Positions 16,498 through 43,946 of a stretch of DNA of 64,000 nt are shown here, piece by piece. The stretch is from an uncultured bacterium (GTDB lineage: Bacteria; Patescibacteriota; Dojkabacteria; J137). Numbering within the stretch: the stretch's first letter is position 1; every line of letters begins with the position of its first letter. The notes under the pieces are model-generated. The model searched no databases. It saw only the letters and a list, made by a program, of their open reading frames with translations, and was not told where the DNA came from. Location of the stretch: the NCBI GenBank assembly GCA_963700155.1, contig OY969472.1:744690-808689 (forward strand), read 5' to 3'. Made by a program: the position numbers and the translations under genes.

Positions 16498-16512
16498 ATA
16501 TTTATCTCTAAA

Positions 16513-16902: not shown

Positions 16903-16967
16903 AGTTTAGAATCTTAAGAAGTATTATTTATATTTTACCAGAAGATTCTTAATTAAATTGAAGTTTA

Positions 16968-17669
16968 TTAACGATAATCATCTAAGTTTTTTGGAATCAT
17001 TGTTCCCATTCCTTTCCACTCTTCTGCTATGGATAAACCAGTATTGAATACCTCTTTCAGTATTTTTTCTGCAATAATTTGATTCCCGATCTCATTACAG
17101 TGTAGATAATCCCGATCACCAGGTTTCATGTCCCATTCGCTGTTACCCCATGGACAAATATAAGTAAAAAGTTTATTTAAATCATATTTTTTAAATTCAT
17201 TGTAAATATCTATGAAGATAGTATTAAATTCCTCAGATAATTCTTTATAAGTATTATTAAAATTTTCCAAGGTGCTGCTCCATTTTGGATTTGGAGTTTC
17301 GTACTGAGACCAGATAACTATATCTGAATTTATTTCCTGAATTTTTTCTAAAAGTTTTGAGGCCCTGGATTTCAAATTTGAGAATTCTTTAATATTATTA
17401 AACCCGAGAGACATTATAGTTATATCTGGCTTGTACATTGCTATAGAAGTCTCGAAATTTTCTAAGAAGTACTCAATATCTGATCCATCAATTCCTTGAT
17501 TAATAATTTTTCTATTCAATCCTTTTGGCCATTCAGGTTCTTGCTTTAAAACAAATGTTATCCAATCAACCCAGTTTGGATGGCACCACTCTTGTGAGGT
17601 TGTACTGTCACCAATACAAAGTACTACTAAAGGTTCAAAATTATTAAGTTTTTTCTGGAAGTTTTTCAT
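16968..17669 (-). CDS. SGNH/GDSL-family hydrolase
   Basis: The N-terminal GDS motif reads VVLCIGDSTT. It is 233 aa. Confidence 0.6.
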   Translation of the reverse strand: MKNFQKKLNNFEPLVVLCIGDSTTSQEWCHPNWVDWITFVLKQEPEWPKGLNRKIINQGIDGSDIEYFLENFETSIAMYKPDITIMSLGFNNIKEFSNLKSRASKLLEKIQEINSDIVIWSQYETPNPKWSSTLENFNNTYKELSEEFNTIFIDIYNEFKKYDLNKLFTYICPWGNSEWDMKPGDRDYLHCNEIGNQIIAEKILKEVFNTGLSIAEEWKGMGTMIPKNLDDYR

Positions 17670-17673
17670 TGAT

Positions 17674-18003
17674 TTAAGGTTCTAATACATCCTCATCTTT
17701 ATATGGAGGAATATTTATACATAATAATTTCATTTTACCAAAATCTGCATACATATCACCTTTCTGTATATAAACAAGATCTCCTTCTTTAACTTGATAT
17801 AATAGATCATTTATTATAAATCGACCATTCCCATTGGCTACATAGTACCAAGAATCACTTTCAAGATGAGTTACAAGTCTATTCTCTCCATCTAACAAAA
17901 TTTCGGCAATGCTTATTTGATCATCTTTATATAAATCTCGAATTGTAATCACATCCTTATCAATAGAATCAATATTATCTGGTTTTATAATTCTTGAAGG
18001 CAT
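17674..18003 (-). CDS. Cupin-domain protein
   Basis: It is 109 aa with a small beta-barrel pattern (GDLVYIQKGDMY). Confidence 0.45.
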   Translation of the reverse strand: MPSRIIKPDNIDSIDKDVITIRDLYKDDQISIAEILLDGENRLVTHLESDSWYYVANGNGRFIINDLLYQVKEGDLVYIQKGDMYADFGKMKLLCINIPPYKDEDVLEP

Positions 18004-18540
18004 TTAATTTATATATTGATATATTTGTTCTAAATTATCAGTAGTAGTGTTATCTGGAATAATTAGATGAATACTATGATAGTAAGGATGGCTTTCATCA
18101 TAAATATCACTTACTGCATAGAGCGGCTTACCAGCTTCATTAACTGAAATTTTATATAATTTACAACCCGCATTTGTAATTTGTTTATTATATTCAATAT
18201 TAAGTTTACCTTCGTAATATCTCTGAACGAATATACTCCAGCTGTATTCATCTATAAGCTCAAGCATTGATACAATATCATCAGAATAATGATTAGCTGA
18301 TATTCCATATTCTGTAATATATTCAGTTCCTTCAATTCTAATATTCATAAATGGGACTGGGACTTCAATTTTTTCGATTTTTAAATTTGAGTATTTATCT
18401 AAGTTTTTATTAAAAACATCATAGAAGTATAGTTTAATTAATTCTATATCACTTTCATAAACAGGATCAGTAGGTTCCTGAGTATGTGAATTCATAATAT
18501 CAATTTTTAACTTAATAAATTTAAAATCATATCTATACAC
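18004..18540 (-). CDS. Hypothetical protein (178 aa)
   Basis: This is an ORF with no recognisable motif. Confidence 0.4.
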   Translation of the reverse strand: MYRYDFKFIKLKIDIMNSHTQEPTDPVYESDIELIKLYFYDVFNKNLDKYSNLKIEKIEVPVPFMNIRIEGTEYITEYGISANHYSDDIVSMLELIDEYSWSIFVQRYYEGKLNIEYNKQITNAGCKLYKISVNEAGKPLYAVSDIYDESHPYYHSIHLIIPDNTTTDNLEQIYQYIN

Positions 18541-19106
18541 TCCTTACCCTCATCATTTTTATACTTGCCTATTTCTTTAAAATCGTTACGCATGTAAAAT
18601 TTAATAGCGTTATAATTATCACTAAATACTCCACCCCATAAGATAATCCTTTGTTGCCCTAACTTTTTAGCAATCTCTTTTATATTTGGGAAAATCATAC
18701 TAGCAAGACCTGTTCCTTGAAATTTATCAGCAACACAAGGTCCAAACCTACAATCTTCTCCATGATGTAATTCAATTCCATAATCTTTGAATCTTTCTAA
18801 ATCGTTTTTAGGAATATCCATGCTGAACTCAAATAACCCAATTACTTCTTCCTTAAAATCAGCAATAAATCTTATCTTGTCATACTTTGCTATATCGTCG
18901 CACATTTGTTGTGCAGTTTTCTGATCAAAAGAGTCGAGTTTGTAAAATTCTCTAGTTGAAGTTGAAAGATTAGTTAGAAACTGAGTAAGTATGTTTACAT
19001 CTTTACTTTCTAAAGGTCGAAGAACAGCATTTTGCCCATCACTTAAAGTTATAGAGAATTGTAAAATATTTGGATTTTGAGATATGTCCTTTATTGAATA
19101 GGCCAT
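18507..19106 (-). CDS. GNAT-family N-acetyltransferase
   Basis: It has motif A FQGTGLASMIF and the C-terminal AIKFYMRNDF. It is 199 aa. Confidence 0.6.
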   Translation of the reverse strand: MAYSIKDISQNPNILQFSITLSDGQNAVLRPLESKDVNILTQFLTNLSTSTREFYKLDSFDQKTAQQMCDDIAKYDKIRFIADFKEEVIGLFEFSMDIPKNDLERFKDYGIELHHGEDCRFGPCVADKFQGTGLASMIFPNIKEIAKKLGQQRIILWGGVFSDNYNAIKFYMRNDFKEIGKYKNDEGKECIDMILNLLS

Positions 19107-19122
19107 TTTTAGAATTTTAAAA

Positions 19123-19207
19123 CGGAGGGAGTGAGATTCGAACTCACGGACCCTTGCGGGTCACTCGTTTTCAAGACGAGCACGATCGGCCACTCTGTCA
19201 TCCCTCC
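19123..19207 (-). tRNA. tRNA-Ser (anticodon TGA), type II with long variable arm; no encoded CCA
   Basis: I folded the cloverleaf by hand. The acceptor is GGAGGGA/TCCCTCC, the anticodon loop is CTTGAAA, the variable arm is TGACCCGCAAGGGTCCG, and the T-loop is TTCGAAT. Confidence 0.8.
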
Positions 19208-19257
19208 TTTGTGCTTATGTATTATACTAAGAAATCGTTGTATCGACTAGATTTTTT

Positions 19258-19686
19258 GTGTTAGAAATAACTATACGTTTAATTTATTATATTTTTATGG
19301 ATAAAATACCTGATAGTTCTGAAGATATCTTAAATGCTCTTCCAATTGAAATTAAAGAAATGATAATGAGTTCAAAAAAACTTAAAAGAATGTTTGTCAA
19401 ACTAAAAGGATTGGAACAAGAAAGAAAAAATCGAGAACAAAACTTGAAATTAATTGAGAAAGAATTTATAAATTTCATTACTAAAAAATTTGATATTGAT
19501 CTGATGCCTAATAAAAGAAGAATAGATTATGAATTTACTATTAAGAGACTTAAAGATATAAACGCTGAAATACAACAACTAATTAATAAAATTAATGTAA
19601 AAATTAATAAATTAAATAAATTAATCTCTACAAAAATAGAAAATAATCGAAATGTTATTGATTTTATAAATACCCTCGAAATCTAG
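19258..19686 (+). CDS. Hypothetical coiled-coil protein (start uncertain, possibly ATG at 19296)
   Basis: It is about 130-142 aa and rich in Lys and Glu. Confidence 0.35.
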   Translation: MLEITIRLIYYIFMDKIPDSSEDILNALPIEIKEMIMSSKKLKRMFVKLKGLEQERKNREQNLKLIEKEFINFITKKFDIDLMPNKRRIDYEFTIKRLKDINAEIQQLINKINVKINKLNKLISTKIENNRNVIDFINTLEI

Positions 19687-19762
19687 CTATATATCCAACG
19701 AACTAAATAAAAATGATATACTAATAAGAAATTAATTTTAAATAGGTTCAATAAGAGCTGAT

Positions 19763-22700
19763 ATGAAAGACTTCAGTACAGACTTAAATAATAGAAAAAG
19801 AACTAAAAGTAGGCTGGATATTGCTAAAGAAAATAGATTAAGAAGAGGCTCAAAATCTTACAAAATAAAGGGCAAAAAGGGTTTGTTTAGAGGAAGAAAA
19901 CTTGGCAAAAGAGTAAAAAAAATATTACTTGTACTACTTCTAGTAATTGTTATAGCTTCAGTTATTGGCGGAGTAAGAGTTCTTGCTTACCTACAGGATT
20001 TAAATGATAACTTACCGACTCCTGATAAAGTTTTCCCTGATCTTCCTGTTGCTAGTGAAATTTATGACAGAAAAGCATTAGAAAGTGATGGTACTGGTAC
20101 TACTCTATATAGAATATTCAATCAATATAACAGCGATCCAGTTGATATTAAACAAGTTCCGGATATTGTAAAATGGTCATTTCTTGCAGCTGAAGATAGT
20201 GATTTTTACACACATGGTGGTTTTGACTTAGTAGCTTTGGTAAGATGTGGATTTGCATATGTTAAAGCTGGAGGAACAGTATCTTGTGGAGGAAGTACAA
20301 TCACACAGCAGTTAGTAAAAATCACTGCTTTAACTAGTGATCCTACTCTTCAAAGGAAAATTGAAGAGCTATTACTCGCTACCAAGGTAGAACAGTTGTA
20401 TGATAAAGACACGATTTTAGAAATGTATTTAAGAGTAGCTCCATTTGGATCAAATATTTATGGAGTAAAGACTGCAGCCAATTTTTACTTTGGAAAAGAA
20501 CCTAAAGATCTTGATTTAGCACAAGCTACTTTATTAGCAGCCATAATACAGGATCCCATAAGGCTTTCTCCTACTCTTTCTCCCGATAAGACTCAAATTT
20601 TTTGTCGATTATCGGATGGTTTAATTATTGATTCAAATAATGTTAATAAAGGAGATGATGGAAAATTTTATGATAGTGGCAATGAAGTAATACAAGCTCC
20701 TAGAGTTAAGTGTAGACAACTCTATATCCTTAACCAAATGGAAGTGAAAATGGATCAGATAAATAATCAGACAAGAATAAATCATAACGATCCTAATCTT
20801 GAGGATGTACTTACTAAAGATGAGATTGATGCTGCTAGGACTGAAAAATTAAAGTACAAAGATCCAGTTTTTGACAAGAAGGCTGGCCATTTTGTAGATT
20901 ATGTCCTTGACGCTCTAACAACTCGAAACTACAATAATGGCCAGCCCTTCACAACTGAAGATCTCCAAAAAGGAGGTTACAAAATCTATACGACATTAGA
21001 CTATGGAATACAACAAGTAGCCGAAAGCTATGCTGCAAAAGCTGTAGATGAGAATAAACAGTTTAATATGAATAATGCAGCTGTAATGACAGTAACTCCA
21101 AGTAATGGTGAAATTATTGCAATGGCTGGTTCAAGGGATTTTTATGGCAAGAGTGAAGGATGTGATAAAGATGGACAGAATTGTAAATTTGATCCTCAGA
21201 CTAATATTTTTAGGACATTACAATCTCCAGGATCTTCGAACAAGCCACTTGGCTTTGAAGTAGCTTATGAGGAAGGCAAATTATTTACAGGAAGTTTACT
21301 TCCAGATATCCCTGTTACAGTAACTGATACAAGTGGTGTTGAATATTCTCCAAAGGATTGGAATGGTGGATTTCTAGGATTAGGCTCAGCAGAATATATG
21401 TTAAGAGAATCAAGAAATTTACCGGCTATAAATGTAATTCAAATGATTGGGGTGAGTAAATATCTTGATACTGCAAGAAAATGGGGATACACAACTTACA
21501 CTGATGATAGTCAATATGGGCTTTCAGTAATACTTGGAGGAGCTGATGTATATCCAGATGAACATGTTCAGGCTTACAGTGTATTTGCCAATAATGGTGA
21601 TCTTGTAAAACTCAATCCTATTTTGAAAATTGTTGATAAAGATGGCAATACTGTTTATGAGGCTAAGCCTGAAAGAGAAAATGTAGCAAAGCCCCAAGGT
21701 GTTTATTTAGTGAATGAATCATTATTGAACTTACATGATTTATCTTGGGATGGAAGAGATGTTGCAGCAAAGACTGGAACTTCAGAAGATAGCAAAGATG
21801 CGTGGACTGTAGAATGGTCACCAGATTTTATCACATTAGCATGGGGTGGAAATAATAATAATGATCCTATGGATCAATATTATGGATATCCTCCTTATGT
21901 AATTATTCCCTGGCTTAAACAATATATGACCGATATTGGTGGAGCCTCTTACTTCTCTGCTAAGACTCAATTTACAAGACCTGGATTTGTTTATCAAGGT
22001 GGAGGTGACTGTAATTCTGATGGTGAATGTTTAGGAATAGAAAAAGGATGGTTAATTCAAGATGTTAACCCACCAAGAGACATAATTAAGAAGAAGTTTT
22101 TAGTATGTAGTGACCAACTTGATAGATTGGCTAGACCAATTGATATTGCAATGGGTAAATCGGTCAAGATGAAATTTACGTATTATAAAATGCCAGTAGC
22201 TGAATGGCAGCACTTTCTAGACGATTATTTGAAAAGCAAAGGAATTTCAAATGTATTCCCTACAGAACCATGTAATATTGACAGAAGCGGTGGTGTAAGT
22301 GGACCATTTTTTAGTTTTACTTCGGTAAGTGGCTCTTCAACTAGTTCAATAAATATAAAAGGTGGAATTTATACTTCTAATTCAGGTGCAAGTATAAGCA
22401 GTTCTACTTTTGTTCTAGATGGTAAAAATATACCTAGTTGTACTCCATCCAATTATGATTCATTTGATATAACGTGTGATATTTCATCTTTAGGGATTCC
22501 GGATAATGGTAAGTATCAATTTTATGCTAATGCTACTGATTCAAAAGGTGTAAATAATAGTTCCTCTACCATATCTGTGGTTATTGGATCTCAAACCACG
22601 GGCAATCTAAGTGTAGATATAGGTTCTCCAATAGGTAATAATTATGCTGTTACTGCACATTTCACAGGATCATATAATTTAGATGGACTGACTTTATATA

Positions 22701-22885
22701 TGATTAAAAATAGTGGCTCAGCAGTGTCCCTGGGCAATATGTCACATGTAGGAAGTAATTATGTTTATGATTGGAATTCTTCAAGTTATGGTTCAGGTAA
22801 ATATAAATTCTACGTTAAGGGAAATATTCAAAGTAGTACAGGTATAGTACAATCAGCAAATAGCTCAGAAATTACAGTACCTTAA
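19763..22885 (+). CDS. ponA: Penicillin-binding protein 1A (bifunctional GT51 transglycosylase / transpeptidase) with ~300-aa C-terminal Ser/Thr-rich extension
   Basis: It has the GT51 motifs EDSDFYTHGG and GGSTITQQL. The transpeptidase SxxK motif reads SPGSSNKPL and the KTG motif reads AAKTGTSED. It is 1040 aa with an N-terminal TM. Confidence 0.85.
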   Translation: MKDFSTDLNNRKRTKSRLDIAKENRLRRGSKSYKIKGKKGLFRGRKLGKRVKKILLVLLLVIVIASVIGGVRVLAYLQDLNDNLPTPDKVFPDLPVASEIYDRKALESDGTGTTLYRIFNQYNSDPVDIKQVPDIVKWSFLAAEDSDFYTHGGFDLVALVRCGFAYVKAGGTVSCGGSTITQQLVKITALTSDPTLQRKIEELLLATKVEQLYDKDTILEMYLRVAPFGSNIYGVKTAANFYFGKEPKDLDLAQATLLAAIIQDPIRLSPTLSPDKTQIFCRLSDGLIIDSNNVNKGDDGKFYDSGNEVIQAPRVKCRQLYILNQMEVKMDQINNQTRINHNDPNLEDVLTKDEIDAARTEKLKYKDPVFDKKAGHFVDYVLDALTTRNYNNGQPFTTEDLQKGGYKIYTTLDYGIQQVAESYAAKAVDENKQFNMNNAAVMTVTPSNGEIIAMAGSRDFYGKSEGCDKDGQNCKFDPQTNIFRTLQSPGSSNKPLGFEVAYEEGKLFTGSLLPDIPVTVTDTSGVEYSPKDWNGGFLGLGSAEYMLRESRNLPAINVIQMIGVSKYLDTARKWGYTTYTDDSQYGLSVILGGADVYPDEHVQAYSVFANNGDLVKLNPILKIVDKDGNTVYEAKPERENVAKPQGVYLVNESLLNLHDLSWDGRDVAAKTGTSEDSKDAWTVEWSPDFITLAWGGNNNNDPMDQYYGYPPYVIIPWLKQYMTDIGGASYFSAKTQFTRPGFVYQGGGDCNSDGECLGIEKGWLIQDVNPPRDIIKKKFLVCSDQLDRLARPIDIAMGKSVKMKFTYYKMPVAEWQHFLDDYLKSKGISNVFPTEPCNIDRSGGVSGPFFSFTSVSGSSTSSINIKGGIYTSNSGASISSSTFVLDGKNIPSCTPSNYDSFDITCDISSLGIPDNGKYQFYANATDSKGVNNSSSTISVVIGSQTTGNLSVDIGSPIGNNYAVTAHFTGSYNLDGLTLYMIKNSGSAVSLGNMSHVGSNYVYDWNSSSYGSGKYKFYVKGNIQSSTGIVQSANSSEITVP

Positions 22886-22931
22886 TTGCGTTTTAATTTT
22901 CACTTAGTGAGTGAATATATTATTGGAAACT

Positions 22932-23273
22932 TTATTTTACCTGTGTTACTAATTGTTTGAAGTGTTCTGGTTGAGATAACGCCATTTCTGCAAGATTTTT
23001 TCTATCGATCCCAATGTTCTTAGCTTTTAAACCACTAATAAATTTGCTGTAACTTAAATCTTCTGTAGAAAGTGCTGCCGATATGGTTTTTATCCATTCA
23101 GTTCTAATCTGGCTTTTTCTATGTTTTCTATGAGCATAGCTGTATTGTCCCGCATGTAAAACTGCTTCTTTTGCTTTTCTATAAAGCTTATGATATGTCA
23201 TTCTATAACCTGAAGCAAGTTTTAGAATTTTTTTATGTCTTCGTGTTTTAGTTGTTCCTCTTTTAATTCTCAT
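22932..23273 (-). CDS. rplT: 50S ribosomal protein L20
   Basis: It begins MRIKRGTTKTRRHKKILKLASGY. Confidence 0.9.
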   Translation of the reverse strand: MRIKRGTTKTRRHKKILKLASGYRMTYHKLYRKAKEAVLHAGQYSYAHRKHRKSQIRTEWIKTISAALSTEDLSYSKFISGLKAKNIGIDRKNLAEMALSQPEHFKQLVTQVK

Positions 23274-23276
23274 TTT

Positions 23277-23489
23277 TTATATTACTAATAATCTTTTAAT
23301 TTTTTTAACTGTACCTTTCGATGTTATCACAAAGTTATCTGGTACAAGCTTTCTTTGTGATTTTCTTTTGCTTTTCAAATGGGCGTTATTCCTATTCTGC
23401 ATATGTTTTCTAATTATTTTACCAGTACCTGTAACTCTAAACCTTTTAGCAGTTCCTTTATGTGTTTTTAATTTATATTTTTTTGCCAT
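23277..23489 (-). CDS. rpmI: 50S ribosomal protein L35
   Basis: It begins MAKKYKLKTHKGTAKRFRVTGTGKI. Confidence 0.9.
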   Translation of the reverse strand: MAKKYKLKTHKGTAKRFRVTGTGKIIRKHMQNRNNAHLKSKRKSQRKLVPDNFVITSKGTVKKIKRLLVI

Positions 23490-23491
23490 TT

Positions 23492-23968
23492 TTATTTATT
23501 TTTTAAAACTACTGATAAATCTCTTCCTTGATTACTTACTTCCCCAACTTCGGAAGAAAATTCTAAATATTTATTTCTTAATTTTTCAAAATTGTCTTGC
23601 ATTTGTTCTTTCGTTGTTTTTCTTTCATGTCTCATCACTATTTTTGCGACTCCTCCCTTCTCAATATGCTTCCTAATTTTCTCAAGTTTAATATTCATTT
23701 CAAAATCTTGAGTGGCTCCTGTAAATCTCCACTCTTTTGTTTCTACAGTTTTGCTTTTATTCTTTCTTAATTTCTTACTTTTTTCGTATTTGAACTTGGA
23801 CCAATCAACAATTCTTGCAACAGGGTTTTCACTATTAGGTGAGACTAAAACCAAATCAAGTTCTTTGTTTCTGGCTACATTAAGAGCTTCATCTCTTGTC
23901 AATTTACCTAAGTTTACTCCCTCTTCGTCGATTACTATTAAATTTGGCAGCCTGATTCTCTCGTTCAC
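23492..23968 (-). CDS. infC: Translation initiation factor IF-3
   Basis: It has IRLPNLIVIDEEGVNLGKLTRDEALNVA...LDLVLVSPNSENPVARIVDW. It sits in the thrS-infC-rpmI-rplT block. Confidence 0.85.
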   Translation of the reverse strand: MNERIRLPNLIVIDEEGVNLGKLTRDEALNVARNKELDLVLVSPNSENPVARIVDWSKFKYEKSKKLRKNKSKTVETKEWRFTGATQDFEMNIKLEKIRKHIEKGGVAKIVMRHERKTTKEQMQDNFEKLRNKYLEFSSEVGEVSNQGRDLSVVLKNK

Positions 23969-24108
23969 ATCATAAATAGGAATTTGAGGCGCTACTTTTT
24001 TTATTTTCCTAATTTTTTTTATAGTTAGACAAACAAATTAATATTTAAAAAATCTTACAATGATAGCAAAAGTATTGATATATCGCAAGATATAAACGCC
24101 AAGATAGG

Positions 24109-25647
24109 TTAAATTTTCATCAAAGATTCTATACTTTTTATTAACTCATTCATGCTAATTAAACCTTGATCAATGTTTTTATGTCTGACAGATACTGAAT
24201 TATTTGCCTGTTCTTTTTCGCCAACAATAATCTGGATTGAAGATTTATTTTGCTCCGCTAAATAAATCTTCCTTTTTAGGCTAATAGACCTAAAATCAAC
24301 ATCTGAAATAATACCATTTTCTTTGAGAGTTTCCTGAACTTTATAAGCATATTCCATATAATTTTTGTTGATTGGGATAATTACTACTTGCTTAGGTGAT
24401 ATCGACTGAGGGATTTCGCCCTTATTATGCTCGAGTATATAAGCAAAGATAGCAAATGAATTCAAAAGATATTCTATTGAGACTGCAATTTTTTTATCAC
24501 TTGTTTGAATATCTTTTTCGAATTTTACCTCAGCTATATTCCATTCCCGATTAAAAATATCAATTGCTTTAAAACTTATAATAGTATCATTAGGATTTTT
24601 AGTTAATACCTTTGAGTGCGAAATCCCTTCTTTTTGTAACAGATTAGATATAACTGAAACTAAAGATGCTTCAGGATCTACATTATAAATATTAGCTTTA
24701 ACATCTATTTTTAATTCTTTTATAATGTCAGTTATATTTTCTATTTCTGAAGTGTGTGATAATTCATCACCTTCAATAAAATATTTCTTAATGAAAACAA
24801 CTCTATGAGTTTCTTTCTCATTCTTATATAGATTTACAGGTAAACTAACTTCGGTTTTATAAGTAATTGGAAACTCTTTTGGACTTCTTAATTTCGACGC
24901 AAAAATCTGATTTATAAATTCTGATAGGTCTTTGGAACTTTCTGAAGAATTAATATAAATTTCTTTCGAGTTAAATGGAAGTAGATATTTAAATATTATT
25001 TTATTAATTGAATTTAGTATTACTGTGCCATTTGTATTCAAGACAACTTTATCTTCTTCAAGTGCTAATCCTAATCCTTGGGTCTTAAGTATTTTTTTAT
25101 AGTTTCTTTCTCCTTCTTCTTCTTTTATTTTAAAGTAATCAGAAAGTTCATTTTTATTATTAAATACAATTCCATATATTCTTTGCATCTTTGGTCTAGA
25201 TGGGTCTTCATTCCAGTGAATATCCTCTATCCTGGTGATTTTTATTGCCCCTACTTCTCCTGTTGAATATGCATGTGGCCCTCGGCAAAGATCAATAAAT
25301 CCATCACCTGTTTTATAAAAACTTATTTCTTGGTCAGGAATGCTCTTTATAAGTTCTGCTTTATAAGTTTGACCTCTTTGAAGCAGGAGATTCATTGCCT
25401 CTTCTCTATTTAGAATAATTTGCTGCATTGGAAGATTCTCTTTAATAATTTTATCTGCCTCCTTCTCTATTCTAGGGAAATCTTTCTCAGTTAATGGTTT
25501 TGTTAAATCTACATCATAGTAGAATCCATCTTTTGTAACTGGCCCAATTCCGAGTTTTACACTTGGTTTAAGGCGTGTTAAAGCAGCAGCAAGTATATGT
25601 GCTCCTGTATGTTTCACTTTGTCAGGTACCGGTGTTATTGTATACAT
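24109..25647 (-). CDS. thrS: Threonyl-tRNA synthetase-like protein (short form; class II catalytic motifs appear degenerate)
   Basis: It holds the canonical thrS position. The N2 domain HTGAHILAAAL and CRGPH...MQRIYG region is conserved, as is the C-terminal class II anticodon-binding domain (QVVIIPI...IIVGEKE...VSVR). The motif 2, motif 3 and Zn-ligand region could not be recognised. Confidence 0.6.
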   Translation of the reverse strand: MYTITPVPDKVKHTGAHILAAALTRLKPSVKLGIGPVTKDGFYYDVDLTKPLTEKDFPRIEKEADKIIKENLPMQQIILNREEAMNLLLQRGQTYKAELIKSIPDQEISFYKTGDGFIDLCRGPHAYSTGEVGAIKITRIEDIHWNEDPSRPKMQRIYGIVFNNKNELSDYFKIKEEEGERNYKKILKTQGLGLALEEDKVVLNTNGTVILNSINKIIFKYLLPFNSKEIYINSSESSKDLSEFINQIFASKLRSPKEFPITYKTEVSLPVNLYKNEKETHRVVFIKKYFIEGDELSHTSEIENITDIIKELKIDVKANIYNVDPEASLVSVISNLLQKEGISHSKVLTKNPNDTIISFKAIDIFNREWNIAEVKFEKDIQTSDKKIAVSIEYLLNSFAIFAYILEHNKGEIPQSISPKQVVIIPINKNYMEYAYKVQETLKENGIISDVDFRSISLKRKIYLAEQNKSSIQIIVGEKEQANNSVSVRHKNIDQGLISMNELIKSIESLMKI

Positions 25648-26063
25648 TTTTCAAGATTGATATAAAGGTAAAATTAATATGTCACTCTAGATTATAAATT
25701 GAATATGGTTTTTATTAAAGTCTTAAGATTTGATAAGTAATATCCTTTTAAAATTGTTCATTTTCTTAATCAGTAAAATAGTTCTATATACTCAAAGTGA
25801 TTATTGGTATGTTATGTTTATGTATCCAAGGAGTATTAAGTTGTTTATCGTAAATGCTATTAAAAATCAATATAGAACATTAAAAATTGATTTTTTAGAT
25901 GTTATTAGTTACAATCATAATAGAGCCTACGCTATCCTCAAAGTTTGGCGACATAGCTAACTCAGGCTCATGTAGGCTTCATGTGAGGTAAAATTCTTGG
26001 GTTTTCTCACTTCCAAGATTGAACTCGCTCTTTAACATATCATTCGTAATTAAATATTGTTTT

Positions 26064-26108
26064 GGTCTCCTCTATTTGTATTTTTTTAAGTATACATAGA
26101 GGAGATCA
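26064..26108 (+). promoter_or_regulatory. 12-bp-stem hairpin (GGTCTCCTCTAT...ATAGAGGAGATC, one G-U) 22 nt upstream of the acquired GT2 gene; RBS GGGAGGG follows
   Basis: I read the inverted repeat directly. It lies at the AT-rich to GC-rich transition. Confidence 0.3.
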
Positions 26109-26129
26109 AAACATTAGGGAGGGAATCCA

Positions 26130-27329
26130 ATGGCAGTAAGACTGATGGAACCCCAAATTCCTTCTCTGAGGGAGTTTGAGGAAGATGAACTTTGGGACTT
26201 GCTCTTCTATGGGCAAGCTCCAAAAAAACCTATAACACCTATCGTAGACTGTATGCTTCCTGCTCATGACGAGGAAGCAAACATCGAGGCAACCGTAGAG
26301 AGTTTGTTTTCACAAACTCTACAACCAAACCGTGTAATTGTTGCTGCAGATAACTGCAGCGACAATACTATCCCGATCCTTGAAAGATTGGTAGATAAAT
26401 ATCGTGGGCGGCTCATTTATTTTGAGACCGTTGATAATTCTGCCAAAAAAGCTGGAGCGCTGAATCAAGCGCTCCAGTACCTTTCACATGAGGCGCAGTA
26501 TGTGCTTCAGATGGATGCAGACACAAAGTTAAGCCCAAACTTGATAGAAGAAGCTATTAAAGAGCTTCGAGCTAATCACAAGTTGGGTGGTGTTTGTTCC
26601 AGGTTCGGAGTATTCCCCTACAAGGGGAAGAATCCATGGCATTGGTTTCTCTGGAAGTTACAGGAAATGGAGTACGCTACAAGCGACTCTAGCCGAGTTG
26701 AAGGCCTTGGGGGTACGAAAGTCCTCTCAGGGGCCGTCGTAGTATTCTGGAGATTTGCTCTTGAGCAAGTGTCGTGGGAACATGGCCTTAGTGAACCAGA
26801 ACAGAAAGATAAGGGAAATGTGTGGTCTGAGAGCACAATTGTCGAAGACTATTCATTGACCCTTGACCTGAAGGAACTTGGATGGAAAGTCCAAGCCGGG
26901 ATGGGCATGATGTCGTGGACCGATACCATGCTGACGTTGTGGGATCTCTGGGATCAGAGGTTCCGCTGGCATTACGGGACTTGGCTCGAGTTGGAGCGAC
27001 GCGGGTGGAATAAGACCACCCGTCACGATATTCTCGAGCTTTGTTTGCATTACTTCATATTGGTGTGCCTTGTGATTTTCTTAGGCACTTTGGTCGCGAT
27101 GGTGATAATTGGGATCCCGATTCAGTTCAACGCGATTGGGCTTTCGGTATTGCTCGTCGCGTGGGCAAATAGGTTGTACCGGTTCTCATATATGAGAGAG
27201 CCAAAATGGTACGATCTATTGATCGCGATCATTTTAATTCCTGAAGAAGTGTATTCTATCTACAGGAATATCAACCTGACCGTGGCTCTTATCCGGAGCT
27301 TGAGGACGAAGTCTCCGCAGAAGTGGTAA
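26130..27329 (+). CDS. Processive family-2 glycosyltransferase (PgaC/NodC/cellulose-synthase-like polysaccharide synthase) in a high-GC acquired segment
   Basis: It has DxD (QMDADTK), the Q(R/Q)xRW motif (DQRFRWHYG), and C-terminal TM helices. It is 399 aa. Local GC is about 50%, against a background of about 30%. Confidence 0.7.
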   Translation: MAVRLMEPQIPSLREFEEDELWDLLFYGQAPKKPITPIVDCMLPAHDEEANIEATVESLFSQTLQPNRVIVAADNCSDNTIPILERLVDKYRGRLIYFETVDNSAKKAGALNQALQYLSHEAQYVLQMDADTKLSPNLIEEAIKELRANHKLGGVCSRFGVFPYKGKNPWHWFLWKLQEMEYATSDSSRVEGLGGTKVLSGAVVVFWRFALEQVSWEHGLSEPEQKDKGNVWSESTIVEDYSLTLDLKELGWKVQAGMGMMSWTDTMLTLWDLWDQRFRWHYGTWLELERRGWNKTTRHDILELCLHYFILVCLVIFLGTLVAMVIIGIPIQFNAIGLSVLLVAWANRLYRFSYMREPKWYDLLIAIILIPEEVYSIYRNINLTVALIRSLRTKSPQKW

Positions 27330-27358
27330 ATGTTCGATAACAGGGAGGTATAACTACC

Positions 27359-27733
27359 ATGAACTACGATCCACCTTTCTTGCCGGTAACCGGAGCAGCT
27401 TTTGCCACTGGTGCTGGCGCATACTTACAATGGACGTGGCCAGTGATCCTGGCTGCGGCTGTTGTGTCGTTTGTAATTCTCGCATTTGGGATGATGCTCT
27501 TGCGACGGAATGAAAGCCGGCTGCTCAAATCCGGTGTCAAGGTTCGTCGCAGTACCCTCCCATACATGATCGGCGGAGTCATCGGCATTGTCGTGGGTAT
27601 CGTCGGCGCGGCGCTTGAATTACCCGCACTTTTCGTGATCCCAGCTATCCTGGTCTCGGTGATCCTCGTCGCGGCGCTGCTTGGGGGCTTTCGCAGCAAT
27701 TTCCCTAAACAGCAGCTCGCCCAAGTCGAATGA
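27359..27733 (+). CDS. Small polytopic membrane protein (124 aa) co-transferred with the GT2 synthase
   Basis: It has several hydrophobic helices and is rich in Gly and Ala. It is GC-rich and is followed by a strong terminator. Confidence 0.5.
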   Translation: MNYDPPFLPVTGAAFATGAGAYLQWTWPVILAAAVVSFVILAFGMMLLRRNESRLLKSGVKVRRSTLPYMIGGVIGIVVGIVGAALELPALFVIPAILVSVILVAALLGGFRSNFPKQQLAQVE

Positions 27734-27743
27734 TGTGTTAGAA

Positions 27744-27773
27744 GGGGGCGGTCCGACGTGTCGGACCGCCCCC
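27744..27773 (+). terminator. GC-rich rho-independent terminator-like hairpin GGGGGCGGTCCGAC..GTCGGACCGCCCCC
   Basis: This is a perfect 14-bp arm (at most 12 bp paired with a real loop). It lies downstream of the 124-aa gene at the GC-to-AT boundary. Confidence 0.6.
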
Positions 27774-27843
27774 TAAAACTTTCTTTTATAAATTCAAAAA
27801 TTTCTACTCTACTATAATCTTGAAATAGGTCGAATATTTTTAT

Positions 27844-29481
27844 TTAATTCTCTTGAGTTGCTTCTGGAGTGCTGAGTATTGCTTGATTATTCCCAATATC
27901 AAATTCAAAAATTGGAACCATTCTAGCTTGAAGTAATGGTGCAATATTTGGATCTACAGGTTCGTCTGCATAAGGCTCAGCACAGTAAAATCCAAGCAAA
28001 TCTCTTACAGGGTCAAGTGGCGGCCCATCATAATCTGAAAACTCGAGGATATCAACCGGCCCTCTTAAACCAGCAGCTTCATCTATAAAAGCTTGATTCA
28101 AAGCTTGGGTTTGTTGTGGGCTGATATAAAATAATCCTATTAATTTACCGTGTTCAGTATTCCCATTTTGAGTTATCGTGAATGGTGCATCTTTATAATA
28201 ATCTCGCCTTATCTTTCCTTCTGCTGAAGTAACATTAGTCCAGGCTAATTGGCTTCCAGTTTCTTCTACGTCTGCTCTTAATGGATCTGCAGGAAATTGG
28301 GACCCGTTTGCTAAATATCCTGAGTGAATAGTTTGAACTAAAACTCCATTATATTGCATCCAAACTGGATTGTCTTGTGCAAAAGGATCTCCAGCTAAAA
28401 AATTATCAGTAGGATTCATTTGTCTAGGATAAATTAGTAAATCAAATTCATTTCTGTTCCAAACTTGAGCAGGCTTTTCTATAACTAATTCAGTTAATGG
28501 ACCTTTCTCAATACCAATAGTCCCAAAGTTAATTGAACCTATATGGAAAGGCACAAAATTTTCTACTTCAAATCTTGGTATGATTGATAAAGTTGTTGGT
28601 CTATTCATTCCAAATAGATTCCAGAATTGTATATCTGGAACTGTAAGATTTGGATCTCTTCTACGATATAATCCAATAAATACATCTCTAAAAGCATTAT
28701 TTAATTGGATAATAAACTCAGGGTTCATAAAGTCTTCTGGAGTATATTTAACTTTACCTCCTGTTAGTATATCTGATGCTAAATTACTCAATATTTGGAA
28801 AGCTTGATCAACTGTAAGGTTAGTTCCAACTCCCTGGATATAATAATCATACGAATTTCCATTAATTCCATGTTCTTCTTTATATGCTTGTTGAATAATT
28901 TCTAAAAAGGCTCTAAAGTTACCGTAAGTGATTTCAGAATATAATTGTTCAGGAGTTTGTATACCTGCAACTTCATTTAAATAGCCATTATTATATAACC
29001 CTGCAGCAACAGCATTATATTGCAACGATTGCAGAAATTCTTCTGCAACTAAACTTTGAGTTACATTACTTAAATGATCCTTCCCAAAAGATATACTGCT
29101 AAACTGAACAGTACCATCTCCGCTCACCTCCATCATCGTAGATCCCCAGCTTCCTCCTCTATTGTGCTCAATATCATAAGTAATTTCATCACTTGTAATA
29201 ATGGGTATTTGGTCAATAAATGCTTCAATTTGAGCATCGCTCATTTCAGGGTGAAATAGCTTGACACTATTATGTATAAAGCTTCTAATTTCAGGATTAT
29301 TAAATGCGTAATTGATTGAGGGATATTGATTATGTGGAATGATAATTGCATCTGGTGATAAAACAATATTTATAGGTGTTGGATCAGCTGGTAAATTTGA
29401 TTGTGCATCAATAGATTGTTGTGAACCAATCCCAAGCATTGATGCTGTTATTGCCAGTGCCGCTAAACTCTTTCTATTCAT
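27844..29481 (-). CDS. Secreted hypothetical protein (545 aa, signal peptide)
   Basis: It has an N-terminal signal peptide (MNRKSLAALAITASMLGIG) and no recognisable catalytic motif. Confidence 0.5.
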   Translation of the reverse strand: MNRKSLAALAITASMLGIGSQQSIDAQSNLPADPTPINIVLSPDAIIIPHNQYPSINYAFNNPEIRSFIHNSVKLFHPEMSDAQIEAFIDQIPIITSDEITYDIEHNRGGSWGSTMMEVSGDGTVQFSSISFGKDHLSNVTQSLVAEEFLQSLQYNAVAAGLYNNGYLNEVAGIQTPEQLYSEITYGNFRAFLEIIQQAYKEEHGINGNSYDYYIQGVGTNLTVDQAFQILSNLASDILTGGKVKYTPEDFMNPEFIIQLNNAFRDVFIGLYRRRDPNLTVPDIQFWNLFGMNRPTTLSIIPRFEVENFVPFHIGSINFGTIGIEKGPLTELVIEKPAQVWNRNEFDLLIYPRQMNPTDNFLAGDPFAQDNPVWMQYNGVLVQTIHSGYLANGSQFPADPLRADVEETGSQLAWTNVTSAEGKIRRDYYKDAPFTITQNGNTEHGKLIGLFYISPQQTQALNQAFIDEAAGLRGPVDILEFSDYDGPPLDPVRDLLGFYCAEPYADEPVDPNIAPLLQARMVPIFEFDIGNNQAILSTPEATQEN

Positions 29482-29574
29482 AGATGTAATAATAACTTAT
29501 AAATATGAATTTGAAAAGAAGAATTGCTATTTGTACGGTGTATCAAGCTTTAAGAGAATATACCCAGTGAATAA

Positions 29575-29647
29575 TGAGCGGTAGAGGGTTCGAACCTCTG
29601 ACCTTACCCACGTCAAGGGTGCGCTCTACCAGCTGAGCTAACCGCTC
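29575..29647 (-). tRNA. tRNA-Val (anticodon GAC); no encoded CCA
   Basis: I folded the cloverleaf by hand. The acceptor is GAGCGGT/ACCGCTC, the D-loop is AGCTGGTA, the anticodon loop is TTGACGT, and the T-loop is TTCGAAC. There is one C27-A43 mismatch. Confidence 0.75.
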
Positions 29648-29656
29648 ATCATTTAA

Positions 29657-30256
29657 TTATTTAGTAGCTTCGCTCTCTTTTTTTATTATCTTATCAACCA
29701 ATCCGTATTTTACCGCATCTTGAGCAGTCATGTAAAAGTCTCTATCCATATCTTTCTCAACTTTTTCTTTTGATTGTCCTGATCTTTCAACTATCATATC
29801 TCTAAGTAGATCTTTAAGTCTTAAAATCTCTTTTGCTGTGATAGCTATATCGCTTGCTTGTCCCTCTGCTCCGCCTAAAGGTTGATGCATATGTATCATA
29901 GCATTTTCAAGAGCAAATCTTTTTCCTTTTGCACCATTTGCAAGAATCATTGTTCCCATCGAGGCTGTTGAACCTACTGCAATAGTTATAACATCGGGTT
30001 TAATATAATTCATAGTGTCAATTATTGCTAATCCTGAATAAACTACTCCTCCTGGGCTGTGAATATAAAGTTGAATATCTTTGTTAGGGTCTTCTTTTGT
30101 TAAAAAAAGCATTTGTGCTACAACTGCGTCTGCAACTTGATCATCAATAGCTGTTCCTAAAAATATAATCCTGTCTTTTAGTAATCTTGAATAAATATCG
30201 TATGCTCGCTCTCCTTCTCTAGATTTTTCTATTACAGTAGGAATTAAATAACTCAT
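29657..30256 (-). CDS. clpP: ATP-dependent Clp protease proteolytic subunit
   Basis: It has the catalytic Ser context GSTASMG and the His motif IHMHQP. It is 199 aa. Confidence 0.9.
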
Positions 30257-30405
30257 GATTTTTCTTTAATATTTAAGATTGTTTTTAAGTCTCATTAGCA
30301 AATATTATATCATACTGCTAATTTATTAAAAGATTTAATTAAAATATTGTTACTAGATAAGAAGATATTGAACAAGAAGAATTTTTAAAATATTTAAAAC
30401 TGAAA

Positions 30406-30425
30406 AGTCCCTTTTTCAAGGGACT
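30406..30425 (-). terminator. Hairpin AGTCCCTT-tttc-AAGGGACT followed (minus strand) by T-rich run
   Basis: It lies about 240 nt downstream of the DUF192 gene stop on the minus strand. The assignment is tentative. Confidence 0.3.
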
Positions 30426-30666
30426 CCTCAGTTGCACTTTTAACTATTTTTACTGCTTTTGTTTAACTTTTCTAATCAAATTATATGCTTGAGAATAACT
30501 TATGTCAACTAATTTATTGAGAAAAATTTTATTGTGCAATAAATAAAATTGTAATCCTAGGAAACCTTACCACACAATAATAATAAGGCTGTATAAAATT
30601 TTTCTCTACTTAGCTAAATTGTACAAATAATTACTATATGTTCAATAGTTTTGTACAAGTATTTTA

Positions 30667-31134
30667 TTAATTTAATGTAAATTTATCTCCAATTTTTAAA
30701 TTATGATTTTCACTCCATCCAGAGTTAACTTCGATTGTAAATTGAGAAGGAATTTTAGAAGAATAAGTCTCTAAAGTTTGATTTGGTCTTGTGGACTTAT
30801 ATAATTGCACTACTTTCAGATTTTTATCTAAATAAATTATATCTAGTGAAATTAATGTATTTTTCATCCAGAAATTTCTCTGAGTTTCATCGTCAAAAAT
30901 GAAAAGCATTCCTGAATTTACTGAAATATTAGTTCTATTCATTAAACCATATTCTTGCTTTTGTGAGGATCTAGCTACTTCAAGATTAAGAATAGTATTA
31001 TCAAACTTGAAGTAAACATTATCTGAATCTGATAAATTTAGTAAATTTGTTGATTGTGCTCTTATTGAGAAGAACAGAAAAATAACGATTAATGTTAATA
31101 GGATTATTAATATTGTTACTATAAATTTTTTCAT
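30667..31134 (-). CDS. DUF192-family secreted/anchored protein
   Basis: It has an N-terminal TM followed by YGLMNRT...GMLFIFDDETQRNFWMKNTLISLDIIYLD, the DUF192 pattern. Confidence 0.5.
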   Translation of the reverse strand: MKKFIVTILIILLTLIVIFLFFSIRAQSTNLLNLSDSDNVYFKFDNTILNLEVARSSQKQEYGLMNRTNISVNSGMLFIFDDETQRNFWMKNTLISLDIIYLDKNLKVVQLYKSTRPNQTLETYSSKIPSQFTIEVNSGWSENHNLKIGDKFTLN

Positions 31135-31143
31135 TATTTTGCT

Positions 31144-33057
31144 TTAAAATCTTCTTTTAAAGTTTTTTTCTATTTCTGATCTTTCAAGCTGCCAGATTGT
31201 TGGCCTGCCATGGGGGCAATTATAAGGATTTTTTAAAGTTAATAAGTTTTTGATAATACTTACCATTTCTTCTCTCTCAAGCTTTTGTCCTGCTCTTATG
31301 CTCCCATGGCAGGCTGTGGTCGCTAAAAGCATATATACTTCTTTATTTAATTTAGGATAAATATCTTTTTCACTTTCATAAGTTTTTTCAAGATCAGTGT
31401 TCATATTCAAGACCTCATCTATGTAATCCTGAATATCTATATTCTCTACAGCTTCAGGAATTTCGAGAATCTGAATAGAATCTTGACCAAAGTCTTCTAA
31501 GATTATTCCGATATTTTTTAGCTCTTCTTTCTTTTCCAGGAGTAATTCTTTATCATGTCGTTTTAACTCTAGAATCTCTGGTATTAGTAGTGGCTTTGTT
31601 TTCAGCTCACCAAGATTTAAGTACAATCTTTCAAATAAGATTTTTTCAGCTGAAGCATGTTGATCAAGCATTATTAATTTGTTGTCTTTTTCAAAAAGAA
31701 TATATGTATTAAAAAGCTGAAATACTTTATCATATTTCATTTCTTGCTGAGTAATTTGTGAATCTGAGCCTTGAATTATTGCCTCATTTTTATCATTATA
31801 AAGCGCTTTCTTTTCTTCAGAATCTGAATTTAAAAATTCTTGGAAATTTTGTGATTTTGAACTATCAATCAAGTTCTTGGTAAAAGAAAGCGCCTCCTGA
31901 ACTTTCCCTTTGGGAGCTTTTTGCTTAAATGAATAATTTGAAGTTTTATCGTTAGCTAAAAAACTTGGTTTTTGTGTTGTGTGTCCAAAGAAATCATTTG
32001 ATGCTGAATCTTGTCTATTCTCAGAATCAAAATTATCCTGCAGAGTATCTGTAATAATTGATTTTGTTGAAGTTTCTAAGGTCTTTCTACATAATGAATA
32101 AACATATCTGAAAATTTCTTGAGAATTTAAAAATCTGATTTCCGTTTTTCTTGGATGAATATTTACATCTATTTGAGATGGATCTATTTCAATAAATAAA
32201 AAGTATGCTGGTTTTAGATCTTTATGAATAAAACCTTTGTAAGCCTCTAATACTGCTGTTGCTACAATTTTATTAATAACAAATCTTCTATTTACATAGG
32301 TATATTGAAAGTTATAACTTTTCTTCCCTATTTCCGGCTTTCCAAAATAGCCTGTTATCTTTATCTGTCCGTTATCAAAAGTTTTCATTTCGAAAAGATT
32401 GGATGCAGTTTGTTTCCCAAAAGCCTCAAATACTCTATTCTTAAAACTTTCTGCTTTAGTTAACCTATAAACTAATCTGTCGTTATGATAAAGTTCAAAA
32501 TGAATATTCAAATGTGGTAAAGCAATATTTAGAAATGTTTCAGTAAGATGTTTTAGCTCTACAGCATTTGATTTCAGGAATTTTTTTCTTGCAGGTATAT
32601 TTTTAAAAATATTATAAATTGATATTTTAGTTCCTTTTTCTGTTTGTGTAGATTTTGCAAAATCTTCTTTAGTATTTTCAATCGTAAGTTTAACAGCTTC
32701 GCCGTTTTCTATTTTGCTTTGTAGTTCAACTCTTTCCGCAACTGATGAAATACTTGCTAAAGCTTCACCTCTAAAACCAAATGAAAGTATCTTATGTAAA
32801 TCTTCTTCATTATTAATTTTCGATGTAGCATGCTGTTTAAAGGCCATTTTTGCATTTTCTTGATCCATTCCTACTCCATTATCTTTAACTTCAATTAATT
32901 CGTTTCCATAGTCTTTTATATTTACGATAATTTTTGAACTCTCAGCATCGATTGAATTCTCTAAAAGTTCTTTTAGAACAGATGATGGACGCTCCACTAC
33001 CTCGCCAGCAGCAATAAGGTTTATTAAATTTTGAGGTAAAATTCTAATTTTATTCAT
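31144..33057 (-). CDS. mutL: DNA mismatch repair protein MutL
   Basis: It has the GHKL ATPase motifs ELLENSIDA, DNGVGM and GFRGEALASI. It is 637 aa. Confidence 0.85.
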   Translation of the reverse strand: MNKIRILPQNLINLIAAGEVVERPSSVLKELLENSIDAESSKIIVNIKDYGNELIEVKDNGVGMDQENAKMAFKQHATSKINNEEDLHKILSFGFRGEALASISSVAERVELQSKIENGEAVKLTIENTKEDFAKSTQTEKGTKISIYNIFKNIPARKKFLKSNAVELKHLTETFLNIALPHLNIHFELYHNDRLVYRLTKAESFKNRVFEAFGKQTASNLFEMKTFDNGQIKITGYFGKPEIGKKSYNFQYTYVNRRFVINKIVATAVLEAYKGFIHKDLKPAYFLFIEIDPSQIDVNIHPRKTEIRFLNSQEIFRYVYSLCRKTLETSTKSIITDTLQDNFDSENRQDSASNDFFGHTTQKPSFLANDKTSNYSFKQKAPKGKVQEALSFTKNLIDSSKSQNFQEFLNSDSEEKKALYNDKNEAIIQGSDSQITQQEMKYDKVFQLFNTYILFEKDNKLIMLDQHASAEKILFERLYLNLGELKTKPLLIPEILELKRHDKELLLEKKEELKNIGIILEDFGQDSIQILEIPEAVENIDIQDYIDEVLNMNTDLEKTYESEKDIYPKLNKEVYMLLATTACHGSIRAGQKLEREEMVSIIKNLLTLKNPYNCPHGRPTIWQLERSEIEKNFKRRF

Positions 33058-43750: not shown

Positions 43751-43897
43751 AAATATATGAGATTAATATTTTAAATATTTATTTCAGTATATCATTAATA
43801 TTTAGACATTGTTACATTTATATTGTAAATATAGGGCATTGGAGGCCTAAAAGTTCCTTCAGATTTAGGGATTTTGTATTTTAGAAAATTTAAATAA

Positions 43898-43930: not shown

Positions 43931-43946
43931 AAAACTTTCATAAGTT

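Follow-up and report, generated by a model that had tools for sequence, protein, structure and literature searches.

A GC-rich two-gene module encoding a predicted processive glycosyltransferase and a small membrane protein, probably gained by horizontal transfer, in a tRNA-adjacent slot of a Patescibacteria genome

We studied a 64,000-nt stretch of contig OY969472.1 (GenBank assembly GCA_963700155.1, from an uncultured bacterium of the Patescibacteriota lineage Dojkabacteria), hereafter the window, in which a GC-rich segment lies between a tRNA-Val(GAC) gene and a thrS-like gene. The segment carries two genes on the plus strand: gene 1 encodes a predicted processive, membrane-embedded family 2 glycosyltransferase (GT2), and gene 2 encodes a small membrane protein, its probable partner. 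The features of this module are listed below in coordinates of the window (ORF, open reading frame; TM, transmembrane; HMM, hidden Markov model; GC3, G+C content at third codon positions).

26058..26113, plus strand: A+T-rich hairpin of about 25 bp (dG -34 kcal/mol, z -6.74), abutting the ribosome-binding site (RBS) of gene 1
26116..26124, plus strand: Shine-Dalgarno-like sequence AGGGAGGGA, read from the sequence, 5 nt ahead of the gene 1 ATG
26130..27329, plus strand: gene 1, predicted 399-aa processive membrane GT2 synthase (Pfam, motifs, family profile, AlphaFold model with Foldseek, GC3 0.527)
27359..27733, plus strand: gene 2, 124-aa membrane protein (ORF, GC3 0.600, match to the partner HMM, conserved position)
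27743..27774: perfect 14-bp G+C hairpin (GGGGGCGGTCCGAC / GTCGGACCGCCCCC; dG -32.1, z -5.85), followed by a weak T-run

The G+C content in 300-nt windows was 0.24-0.30 at 25600-25900, rose to 0.43-0.57 at 26100-27800 and then fell to 0.30-0.39. Two-state segmentation placed the maximum-likelihood change points at 26117 and 27774, which gives a segment of 1658 bp with a GC of 0.495 (z = 5.8), compared with 0.316 +/- 0.031 and a maximum of 0.413 in same-size windows elsewhere in the 64 kb. The excess was largest at synonymous third codon positions, as GC3 reached z = 9.4 in gene 1 and z = 11.5 in gene 2 against the 57 ordinary ORFs of the window (0.197 +/- 0.035). A Logan assembly of run ERR11571143 matched window positions 16130-31752 over 15,623 bp at 100% identity with both junctions included, indicating that the GC-rich segment is not an artefact of one assembler. 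The recomputed profile thus reproduced the jump at about 26110-27780 on which a preliminary description of this DNA had been built, and both ORFs named there are present. The antisense ORFs, regarded there as artefacts, had no family matches and lay wholly within the sense genes; such ORFs are to be expected in the block because stop codons are rare in it. The GC-rich hairpin in which the segment was said to end was identified as the perfect 14-bp stem that closes the foreign DNA on its right side, and its 3' end coincides with the change point at 27774.

Gene 1 matched PF00535, PF13632 and PF13641, and its product carries the motifs DNCSD (residues 74-78), DAD (129-131), VED (238-240) and QRFRW (276-280; nt 26955-26969). 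The catalytic motif columns were invariant in a 20-sequence alignment of the family, and gene 1 has all 30 invariant columns. When the gene 1 protein alone was searched against the sequences of the PDB, the match was confined to the GT-A core of chondroitin synthase, so that a family profile was needed. The profile built from the 20-sequence alignment matched BcsA (1.3e-15), chitin synthases (Chs; 1e-14) and hyaluronan synthases (HAS; 2e-12), and its alignments to all three extended through the QxxRW region. The AlphaFold (AF2) model of gene 1 had a pLDDT of 86.4 and a pTM of 0.85, and its best Foldseek matches were Cv-HAS 7sp7 (TMq 0.65), Xenopus HAS1 and BcsA 4p00 (TMq 0.64), all with probability 1.0; chitin synthases followed at TMq 0.5-0.6, also with probability 1.0, and the archaeal PcManGT, which is not described as a processive synthase, ranked seventh. 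The protein is laid out as a GT-A domain, interface helices and about three C-terminal membrane helices (298-327, 335-352 and 360-392), with no N-terminal TM helix. Motifs, Pfam, family profile, model and Foldseek search agree with the processive QRFRW/DAD GT2 with C-terminal TM helices that the preliminary description had proposed, and gene 1 is predicted to be a processive membrane-embedded GT2 synthase of an uncharacterised clade.

A Trp at or near the C-terminus was invariant in 20/20 family members. It is the very last residue in most of them, including the window protein (W399), and such conservation is unusual.

Gene 1 shares the GT-A domain, interface helices and TM channel with Cv-HAS 7sp7, BcsA 4p00/4hg6 and chitin synthases (TMq 0.62-0.65), but it is only 12-20% identical to them, much smaller (399 aa) and limited to about three membrane helices; unlike BcsA, it has neither a PilZ domain nor a BcsB-type partner. 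The PgaC-PgaD system of E. coli and the IcaA-IcaD system of Staphylococcus likewise combine a processive GT2 carrying D, DxD, ED and QxxRW with an adjacent small membrane protein. PgaC_IcaA was the best NCBIfam match of gene 1, although the score against the equivalog TIGR03937 was 68.7 bits, below the cut-off of 422.3, and gene 1 lacks the N-terminal TM helices of PgaC/IcaA. NodB-type deacetylases, analogues of PgaB/IcaB, occur in many cassettes related to the island, whereas the island itself has none; PF01522 was found in the window only in two native giant proteins (39719-46661). PgaCD activity depends on cyclic di-GMP. The second and fourth NCBIfam matches of gene 1 were TIGR03111 (XrtG; 41 bits, cut-off 364) and NF053846 (XrtP; 38 bits, cut-off 520), which describe exosortase/PEP-CTERM-associated GT2s. 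These too are PgaC-like GT2s coupled genetically to a protein-sorting transpeptidase, but the loci related to gene 1 encode a sortase and not an exosortase.

Gene 2 starts 29 nt past the GT2 stop on the same strand and has its own RBS, with GGGAGG at 27343-27348. Its residues 1-55 read MNYDPPF-LPVTG, a G/A-rich spacer, TM1 and RRNESR; the LPVTG occupies residues 8-12 (nt 27380-27394), the TM helix approximately 28-48 and the basic tail 49-54. Residues 66-124 form two further TM helices, which the other members of the partner family do not have. Gene 2 matched no Pfam or NCBIfam family beyond noise, GtrA (PF04138), PgaD and IcaD included (Pfam E <= 0.01; NCBIfam E <= 1), and the GtrA/flippase-like label of the preliminary description is replaced here by a relationship to the LPxTG-type partners of this GT2 clade. 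An HMM built from six clade partners, with the window protein left out, ranked gene 2 best of the 798 ORFs in the window (E 7.8e-4). Related loci or contigs are given L-numbers below, and proteins of the GT2 family P-numbers. Directly downstream of the GT2, a small one-TM ORF was present at 67/80 of the genome loci and 51/73 of the metagenome loci, and the two frames often overlap at the GT2 stop. The N-termini of the partners compare as follows.

Window: MNYDPPFLPVTG, then a G/A-rich stretch, TM and RRNESR
L017: MNYGPNLPPTG...
L123: MYQPPTLPPTG; MYQPPTLPPTGGG...
L124: MYPSPTLPSTGGG...
L130: MYNGAALPATGG...
L096: MYGVPLLPKAGG...

By this profile match and its position, gene 2 is read as the probable small partner of this GT2 clade, extended by two TM helices. 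By analogy of position and size with PgaD/IcaD we take it as a putative membrane subunit of the synthase; unlike those proteins, it carries an LPxTG-type motif and has no sequence similarity to them. An internal duplication in gene 2 was considered and rejected, since the Smith-Waterman score was reached by 105/500 shuffles.

The partner family has a common build of a short N-terminus, an L[PA]xTG motif, a hydrophobic helix of about 20-35 residues and an R/K-rich tail, with no passenger. In high-GC loci that are named as, or resemble, Actinomycetota, the partners are mostly LAFTG or LAATG and some are LPFTG; LPxTG or a near variant was found in Saccharibacteria, in mid- and low-GC metagenomic partners and in the window copy. 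LAxTG is the motif of class E sortases (PMC5148588). A sortase gene (PF04203) was identified in the cassette of 13 loci (L023, L024, L035, L067, L076, L082, L123, L124, L135, L145, L153, L159 and L202). The partner bore the motif at 12/13 of these loci versus 35/140 loci without a sortase (Fisher p 2.4e-6, a value that ignores relatedness and includes several duplicate loci). In L123 (JRER01001421.1, 1397-2914), a 505-aa protein fuses a PF01522 deacetylase (105-232) to a PF04203 sortase (360-499); it lies directly upstream of the GT2, its frame overlapping the GT2 ORF if TTG, the first possible start, is taken for the latter. The GT2, 40% identical to gene 1, is followed by an LPPTG miniprotein. 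In L124 the order is sortase, GT2 and LPSTG miniprotein, with a GT2 40-41% identical to gene 1. At least 12 loci (L002, L006, L008, L019, L022, L025, L045, L046, L123, L135, L140 and L146) have a NodB-type deacetylase (PF01522) within the cassette or next to it.

We further compared the flanks of the module with those of related genomes. Four relatives (L011, L013, L014 and L015; ThrRS identity 46-82%) were recovered by protein search and contig look-ups, while ThrRS-based scans of genome contigs and of metagenome contigs returned no relatives. All four share the order MutL, DUF192, ClpP, tRNA-Val(GAC), slot, thrS, infC, rpmI and rplT, and none of the 4/4 has a GT2 gene in the slot between tRNA-Val and thrS. 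The contents of the slot and the neighbouring features of the window are listed below.

L011 (ThrRS 82%, N-terminal part): 141-aa NUDIX gene in the slot
L014 (ThrRS 71%): dCTP-deaminase gene in the slot
L013 (ThrRS 69%): 141-aa gene with no Pfam match in the slot
L015 (ThrRS 46%, the most distant): 13 bp only in the slot
24109..25647, minus strand: thrS-like gene, 512 aa, conserved slot boundary, followed by infC, rpmI and rplT
25678..26057: intergenic DNA separating thrS from the island, non-coding and without equivalent in relatives
27844..29481, minus strand: 545-aa ORFan, slot cargo, with native GC3 (0.189) and a signal-peptide-like N-terminus
29574..29648, minus strand: tRNA-Val(GAC), conserved slot boundary on the ClpP side, adjoining ClpP in L011, L013, L014 and L015

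Nucleotide similarity to the relatives extended to the tRNA end at 29573 and resumed at 25647-25677; on the thrS side, its limit was some 30 nt upstream of where thrS starts. The interval 25678-29572 is thus slot cargo specific to this genome, and it consists of the non-coding spacer (440 bp), the GC-rich block with its two genes and the 545-aa ORFan. The absence of the module from the four relatives, a comparison which the preliminary description had proposed as a check, gives good support to horizontal acquisition into a variable slot. That description had set the insert beside rpsT; the flanking genes are thrS-infC-rpmI-rplT. Its interpretation is supported in part. The GC-rich block is foreign and is nested in the larger variable slot 25678-29572 together with the native-composition ORFan. 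The ORFan had no Pfam or NCBIfam match and no homologue in 5.8 billion proteins, and it was not in the slot of the four relatives. It was considered as a member of the module and rejected; on the grounds of its native codon usage and lack of homologues it is treated as separate cargo.

The thrS-like gene occupies the canonical thrS-infC-rpmI-rplT position. The editing domain (10-189) and the anticodon-binding domain (400-505) of its 512-aa product match S. aureus ThrRS (1nyq), and no match of the central ~210 residues to the class II catalytic core or to PF00587 was found. This architecture is common to about 25 relatives of 500-524 aa.

The origin of the GT2 was examined by protein searches. 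The best identity to gene 1 was 40-41% in a search of 5.8 billion proteins and in a scan of JGI metagenomes, at which the donor lineage sought in the preliminary description could not be named. Among GTDB genomes, the best matches were three metagenome-assembled genomes (MAGs) labelled 'uncultured Candidatus Saccharibacteria' (36-38%) and an unclassified MAG, followed by Actinomycetospora and then dozens of Actinomycetota at 29-36%; the family of gene 1 is otherwise overwhelmingly Actinomycetota. In a neighbour-joining (NJ) tree, the window GT2 fell inside a mid-GC/Saccharibacteria set in 184/200 bootstraps. The island GT2 gene has 47% GC and a GC3 of 0.53, and the closest loci have the following values.

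L123: GC 50%, GT2 GC3 0.59
L124: GC 38%, GT2 GC3 0.46
L126: GC 41%, GT2 GC3 0.56
L130: GC 42%, GT2 GC3 0.44
L096: GC 45%, GT2 GC3 0.47
L002: GC 46%, GT2 GC3 0.55

The exception among the closest loci was L125 (66% GC). The Actinomycetota copies have a GT2 GC3 of 0.74-0.99. A best identity of 40-41%, with mid-GC contigs and Saccharibacteria MAGs nearest, indicates that the donor is unsampled, and by composition and tree position it was probably a mid-GC (about 40-50%) organism of this GT2 clade that is absent from databases.

Two of the related loci have features of their own. L021/L144 is a 1950-bp contig, MDTP02000297.1 (Methanosarcina sp. Ant1), with 31% GC and a bacterial-type GT2 of the clade (33% identity, GC3 0.23); the same contig was found in a metagenome record too, and it is probably a contaminant from a low-GC bacterium. 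In L002 (Saccharibacteria MAG CAZQWH010000001.1, 2,000-10,000), the GT2/miniprotein/deacetylase cassette is ringed by many small unannotated ORFs, and an IS200-type Y1 transposase (PF01797) is encoded about 7 kb upstream.

At the left end of the module, the A+T-rich hairpin at 26058-26113 marks where the GC-rich DNA begins and is part of the probable 5' leader of gene 1, and at the right end the GC hairpin is a probable operon terminator brought in with the foreign DNA. Terminator-like sites in the 23-31 kb region numbered 7 versus 4.8 +/- 2.3 in shuffles, which is not above chance and gives no support to the distinct native terminator type named in the preliminary description. Repeated host elements were rejected as an account of the hairpins, as neither recurs in the window. 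A riboswitch or known RNA in the leader was rejected as well, with no bacterial Rfam family matched and only generic (miRNA) hairpin models found below threshold. The spacer 25678-26057 is A+T-rich except at 25925-26050 (35-50% GC in 40-nt windows), and a promoter-like TTAACA-17-TATTGT at 26032-26060 matched 9/12 positions, which is weak. A 76-aa ORF in the spacer had no Pfam match.

With regard to the route of insertion, no integrase or transposase ORF was found in the slot. Terminal inverted repeats were rejected, as the 14-nt pair at 26033/27727 is at the level of chance for a 2.4-kb region and its right arm lies within the GC hairpin boundary. A phage or plasmid vector was rejected too, since no plasmid or phage sequence was matched when 25900-27800 was searched with blastn. 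Relatives of the GT2 in IMG/VR had a best-segment identity of 25-38% (the 38% match spans 119 residues), below the best full-length cellular matches. By default, we attribute the insertion to illegitimate recombination at a permissive intergenic site. As in tRNA-adjacent genomic islands, the cargo adjoins the 3' end of a tRNA gene and differs from relative to relative; unlike such islands, the slot has neither an integrase nor a duplicate of the tRNA 3' end, and the import is only 1.7 kb.

Two other GC-rich patches were detected in the window, at 46923-49208 (minus strand) and 51851-52252. Their ORFs include a 328-aa ORF with a weak GT87 match and 101-aa and 193-aa ORFs without a Pfam match, all with a GC3 of 0.38-0.46, and a 133-aa ORF with a GC3 of 0.59 and no Pfam match on either strand. 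Both patches are probably further foreign DNA, one of them encoding an envelope glycosyltransferase-like protein.

The organism also has a native PgaC-like GT2 at 37245-38453 (plus strand), as the preliminary description had noted, with 181 bits to TIGR03937 (below the cut-off of 422.3) and a GC3 of 0.20. The native locus comprises ORFs at 37078-37248 (plus), 37245-38453 (plus), 38454-39581 (minus), 39719-43750 (minus) and 43947-46661 (minus). The 56-aa ORF at 37078-37248 has a single TM helix, a G-rich N-terminus and a KFRNRKFR tail, its stop overlaps the native GT2 start (ATGA), and it was the second-best match of the partner HMM in the window (E 0.015-0.08). Beyond the GT2, the locus encodes a GH16 protein and then giant proteins of 1343 and 904 aa, each with a PF01522 deacetylase domain.

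Based on the above results, the original observation is confirmed, and the reading of the segment as foreign and horizontally acquired is well supported by its composition and by the four relatives without the module. We consider it likely that a two-gene operon, predicted to encode a processive GT2 and its partner, was gained recently by horizontal gene transfer into the tRNA-Val(GAC)/thrS slot of a Candidate Phyla Radiation (CPR) genome of roughly 1.14 Mb and 32% GC, probably related to Dojkabacteria. In the mechanism that we propose, DNA of an unsampled mid-GC donor would have landed in the variable slot between tRNA-Val(GAC) and thrS. If expressed in its new host, gene 1 would polymerise a UDP-sugar at the inner membrane face, and the chain would be threaded outward between the C-terminal helices of gene 1 and the helices of the partner. 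Gene 2 would fill the role that PgaD/IcaD has for PgaC/IcaA, and the GC hairpin would terminate the operon. By analogy, the product would most likely be a beta-linked polymer containing N-acetylglucosamine (GlcNAc), similar to poly-N-acetylglucosamine or chitin, a guess which comes from the frequent deacetylases in related cassettes.

Several points weigh against this interpretation or parts of it. The host label is weak, as the named relatives of the thrS-like protein are 'Candidatus Dojkabacteria' at 36-37% identity; the window proteins that were looked up were all singletons at 90% identity and belonged to a single contig of 1,140,724 bp. The donor and the timing are read from composition alone, with no relative more than 41% identical, and two groupings in the NJ tree are weak, the window GT2 joining P0002 in 93/200 bootstraps and the mid-GC/Saccharibacteria set being monophyletic in 109/200. 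The partner homology of gene 2 consists of a weak profile match and position, and a HMMER (phmmer) search of 1.84 billion representative proteins found no homologue. No mobility gene in the slot accounts for the insertion, and neither an att repeat nor a target-site duplication was found: matches to the tRNA within the slot reached 10 nt at most (E 0.2), and no repeat longer than 7 nt flanks the GC block. The island contains neither a deacetylase nor a sortase, and both the polymer chemistry and the expression of the operon are predictions made from sequence.

Other explanations were weighed against horizontal gain of a processive synthase operon. An abrupt change of composition in a metagenome-derived genome could suggest an assembly chimera or contaminant read-through, and the two assemblies may share the same reads. 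We regard this as extremely improbable, given the separate 15,623-bp assembly that is identical over both junctions, the host sequence on both sides within one contig and the intergenic edges with RBS and terminator intact; the smaller GC-rich patches elsewhere in the window also indicate that this genome takes in foreign DNA more generally. Equally hard to credit is that the genes are ancestral, were lost in the relatives and owe their high GC to a local mutation bias or to the make-up of the proteins. What the slot contains differs among all relatives, so genes do get lost from it, but the excess is highest at synonymous sites (GC3 0.53-0.60 vs 0.20), the native membrane GT2 paralogue has a GC3 of 0.20, the slot of the most distant relative is just 13 bp long, and the nearest relatives of the GT2 are in other phyla. 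The function of the pair could also be read differently, with gene 1 as a GtrB/DPM-type GT2, non-processive and transferring a sugar to polyprenyl phosphate, and gene 2 as a GtrA-like flippase. A GT2 with C-terminal TM helices next to a small polytopic protein does resemble gtrAB cassettes, and the family members P0008 and P0010 have an N-terminal GtrA domain. However, QRFRW and VED are present, the profile runs through QxxRW, the best structural matches are processive synthases and gene 2 has no PF04138 match, which makes this function very unlikely.

A further alternative refines the role of gene 2 and is compatible with horizontal transfer, namely that gene 2 is a sortase substrate as well as a subunit. 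The outward LPVTG before TM1 would be cleaved in a sortase-coupled polysaccharide system, and the N-terminal peptide would be joined to peptidoglycan or to amines of the deacetylated polymer, tethering the product of the synthase to the wall. The sorting-signal architecture of the partner family, with LAxTG or LPxTG, argues for such a role, as do the cassette sortases in 13 loci, 12/13 with a motif-bearing partner, the deacetylase-sortase fusion and LPPTG miniprotein of L123 and the sortase and LPSTG miniprotein of L124. As in known LPXTG/LAXTG substrates, motif, hydrophobic helix and basic tail follow one another in the right order, also in gene 2. Unlike such substrates, the partner proteins consist of the signal alone, with neither passenger nor signal peptide. 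The placement in gene 2 is atypical as well, since the motif stands at residue 8, a gap of 36 residues separates motif and tail, 70 residues with two TM helices follow the tail, no N-terminal signal peptide is present and the cleavage product would be only 11 residues long. Moreover, neither a sortase nor a native protein ending in an LPxTG signal was found in the 64-kb window, and the left spacer contained no sortase remnant; the motif is missing in about two thirds of the family partners; and no published description of a GT2/sorting-signal miniprotein/sortase system was found in the literature searched. On balance, we consider a role as sortase substrate possible but rather doubtful.

With the same reserve, we tentatively propose that the module may be a truncated copy of an undescribed monoderm surface-polysaccharide system, made up of a minimal GT2, a signal-only miniprotein, a sortase and a NodB deacetylase, in which the sortase would couple the product or a primer peptide to the wall or to polymer amines. 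Its hosts would be Actinomycetota, Saccharibacteria, other CPR bacteria and, apparently, some Chloroflexota. The horizontal transfer is in itself ordinary biology, and it is the sorting-signal-like partner that is unexpected; what is new possibly lies in the family-wide link of minimal synthase, signal-only miniprotein, sortase and deacetylase and not in the transfer.

The genomes of CPR/Patescibacteria are tiny, and a life attached to other microbes is assumed for these bacteria, so that surface polymers are likely to be central to them. The module studied here, a case closed on both sides, suggests that a CPR bacterium acquired one more exopolysaccharide synthase from another lineage at a defined tRNA-adjacent hotspot. 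A sortase-coupled system, if true, would explain how a polymer is retained by cells without an outer membrane, and if the link of synthase, miniprotein, sortase and deacetylase is functional, it would suggest, in a form open to test, how polysaccharides made by synthases become anchored to walls of the Gram-positive type.

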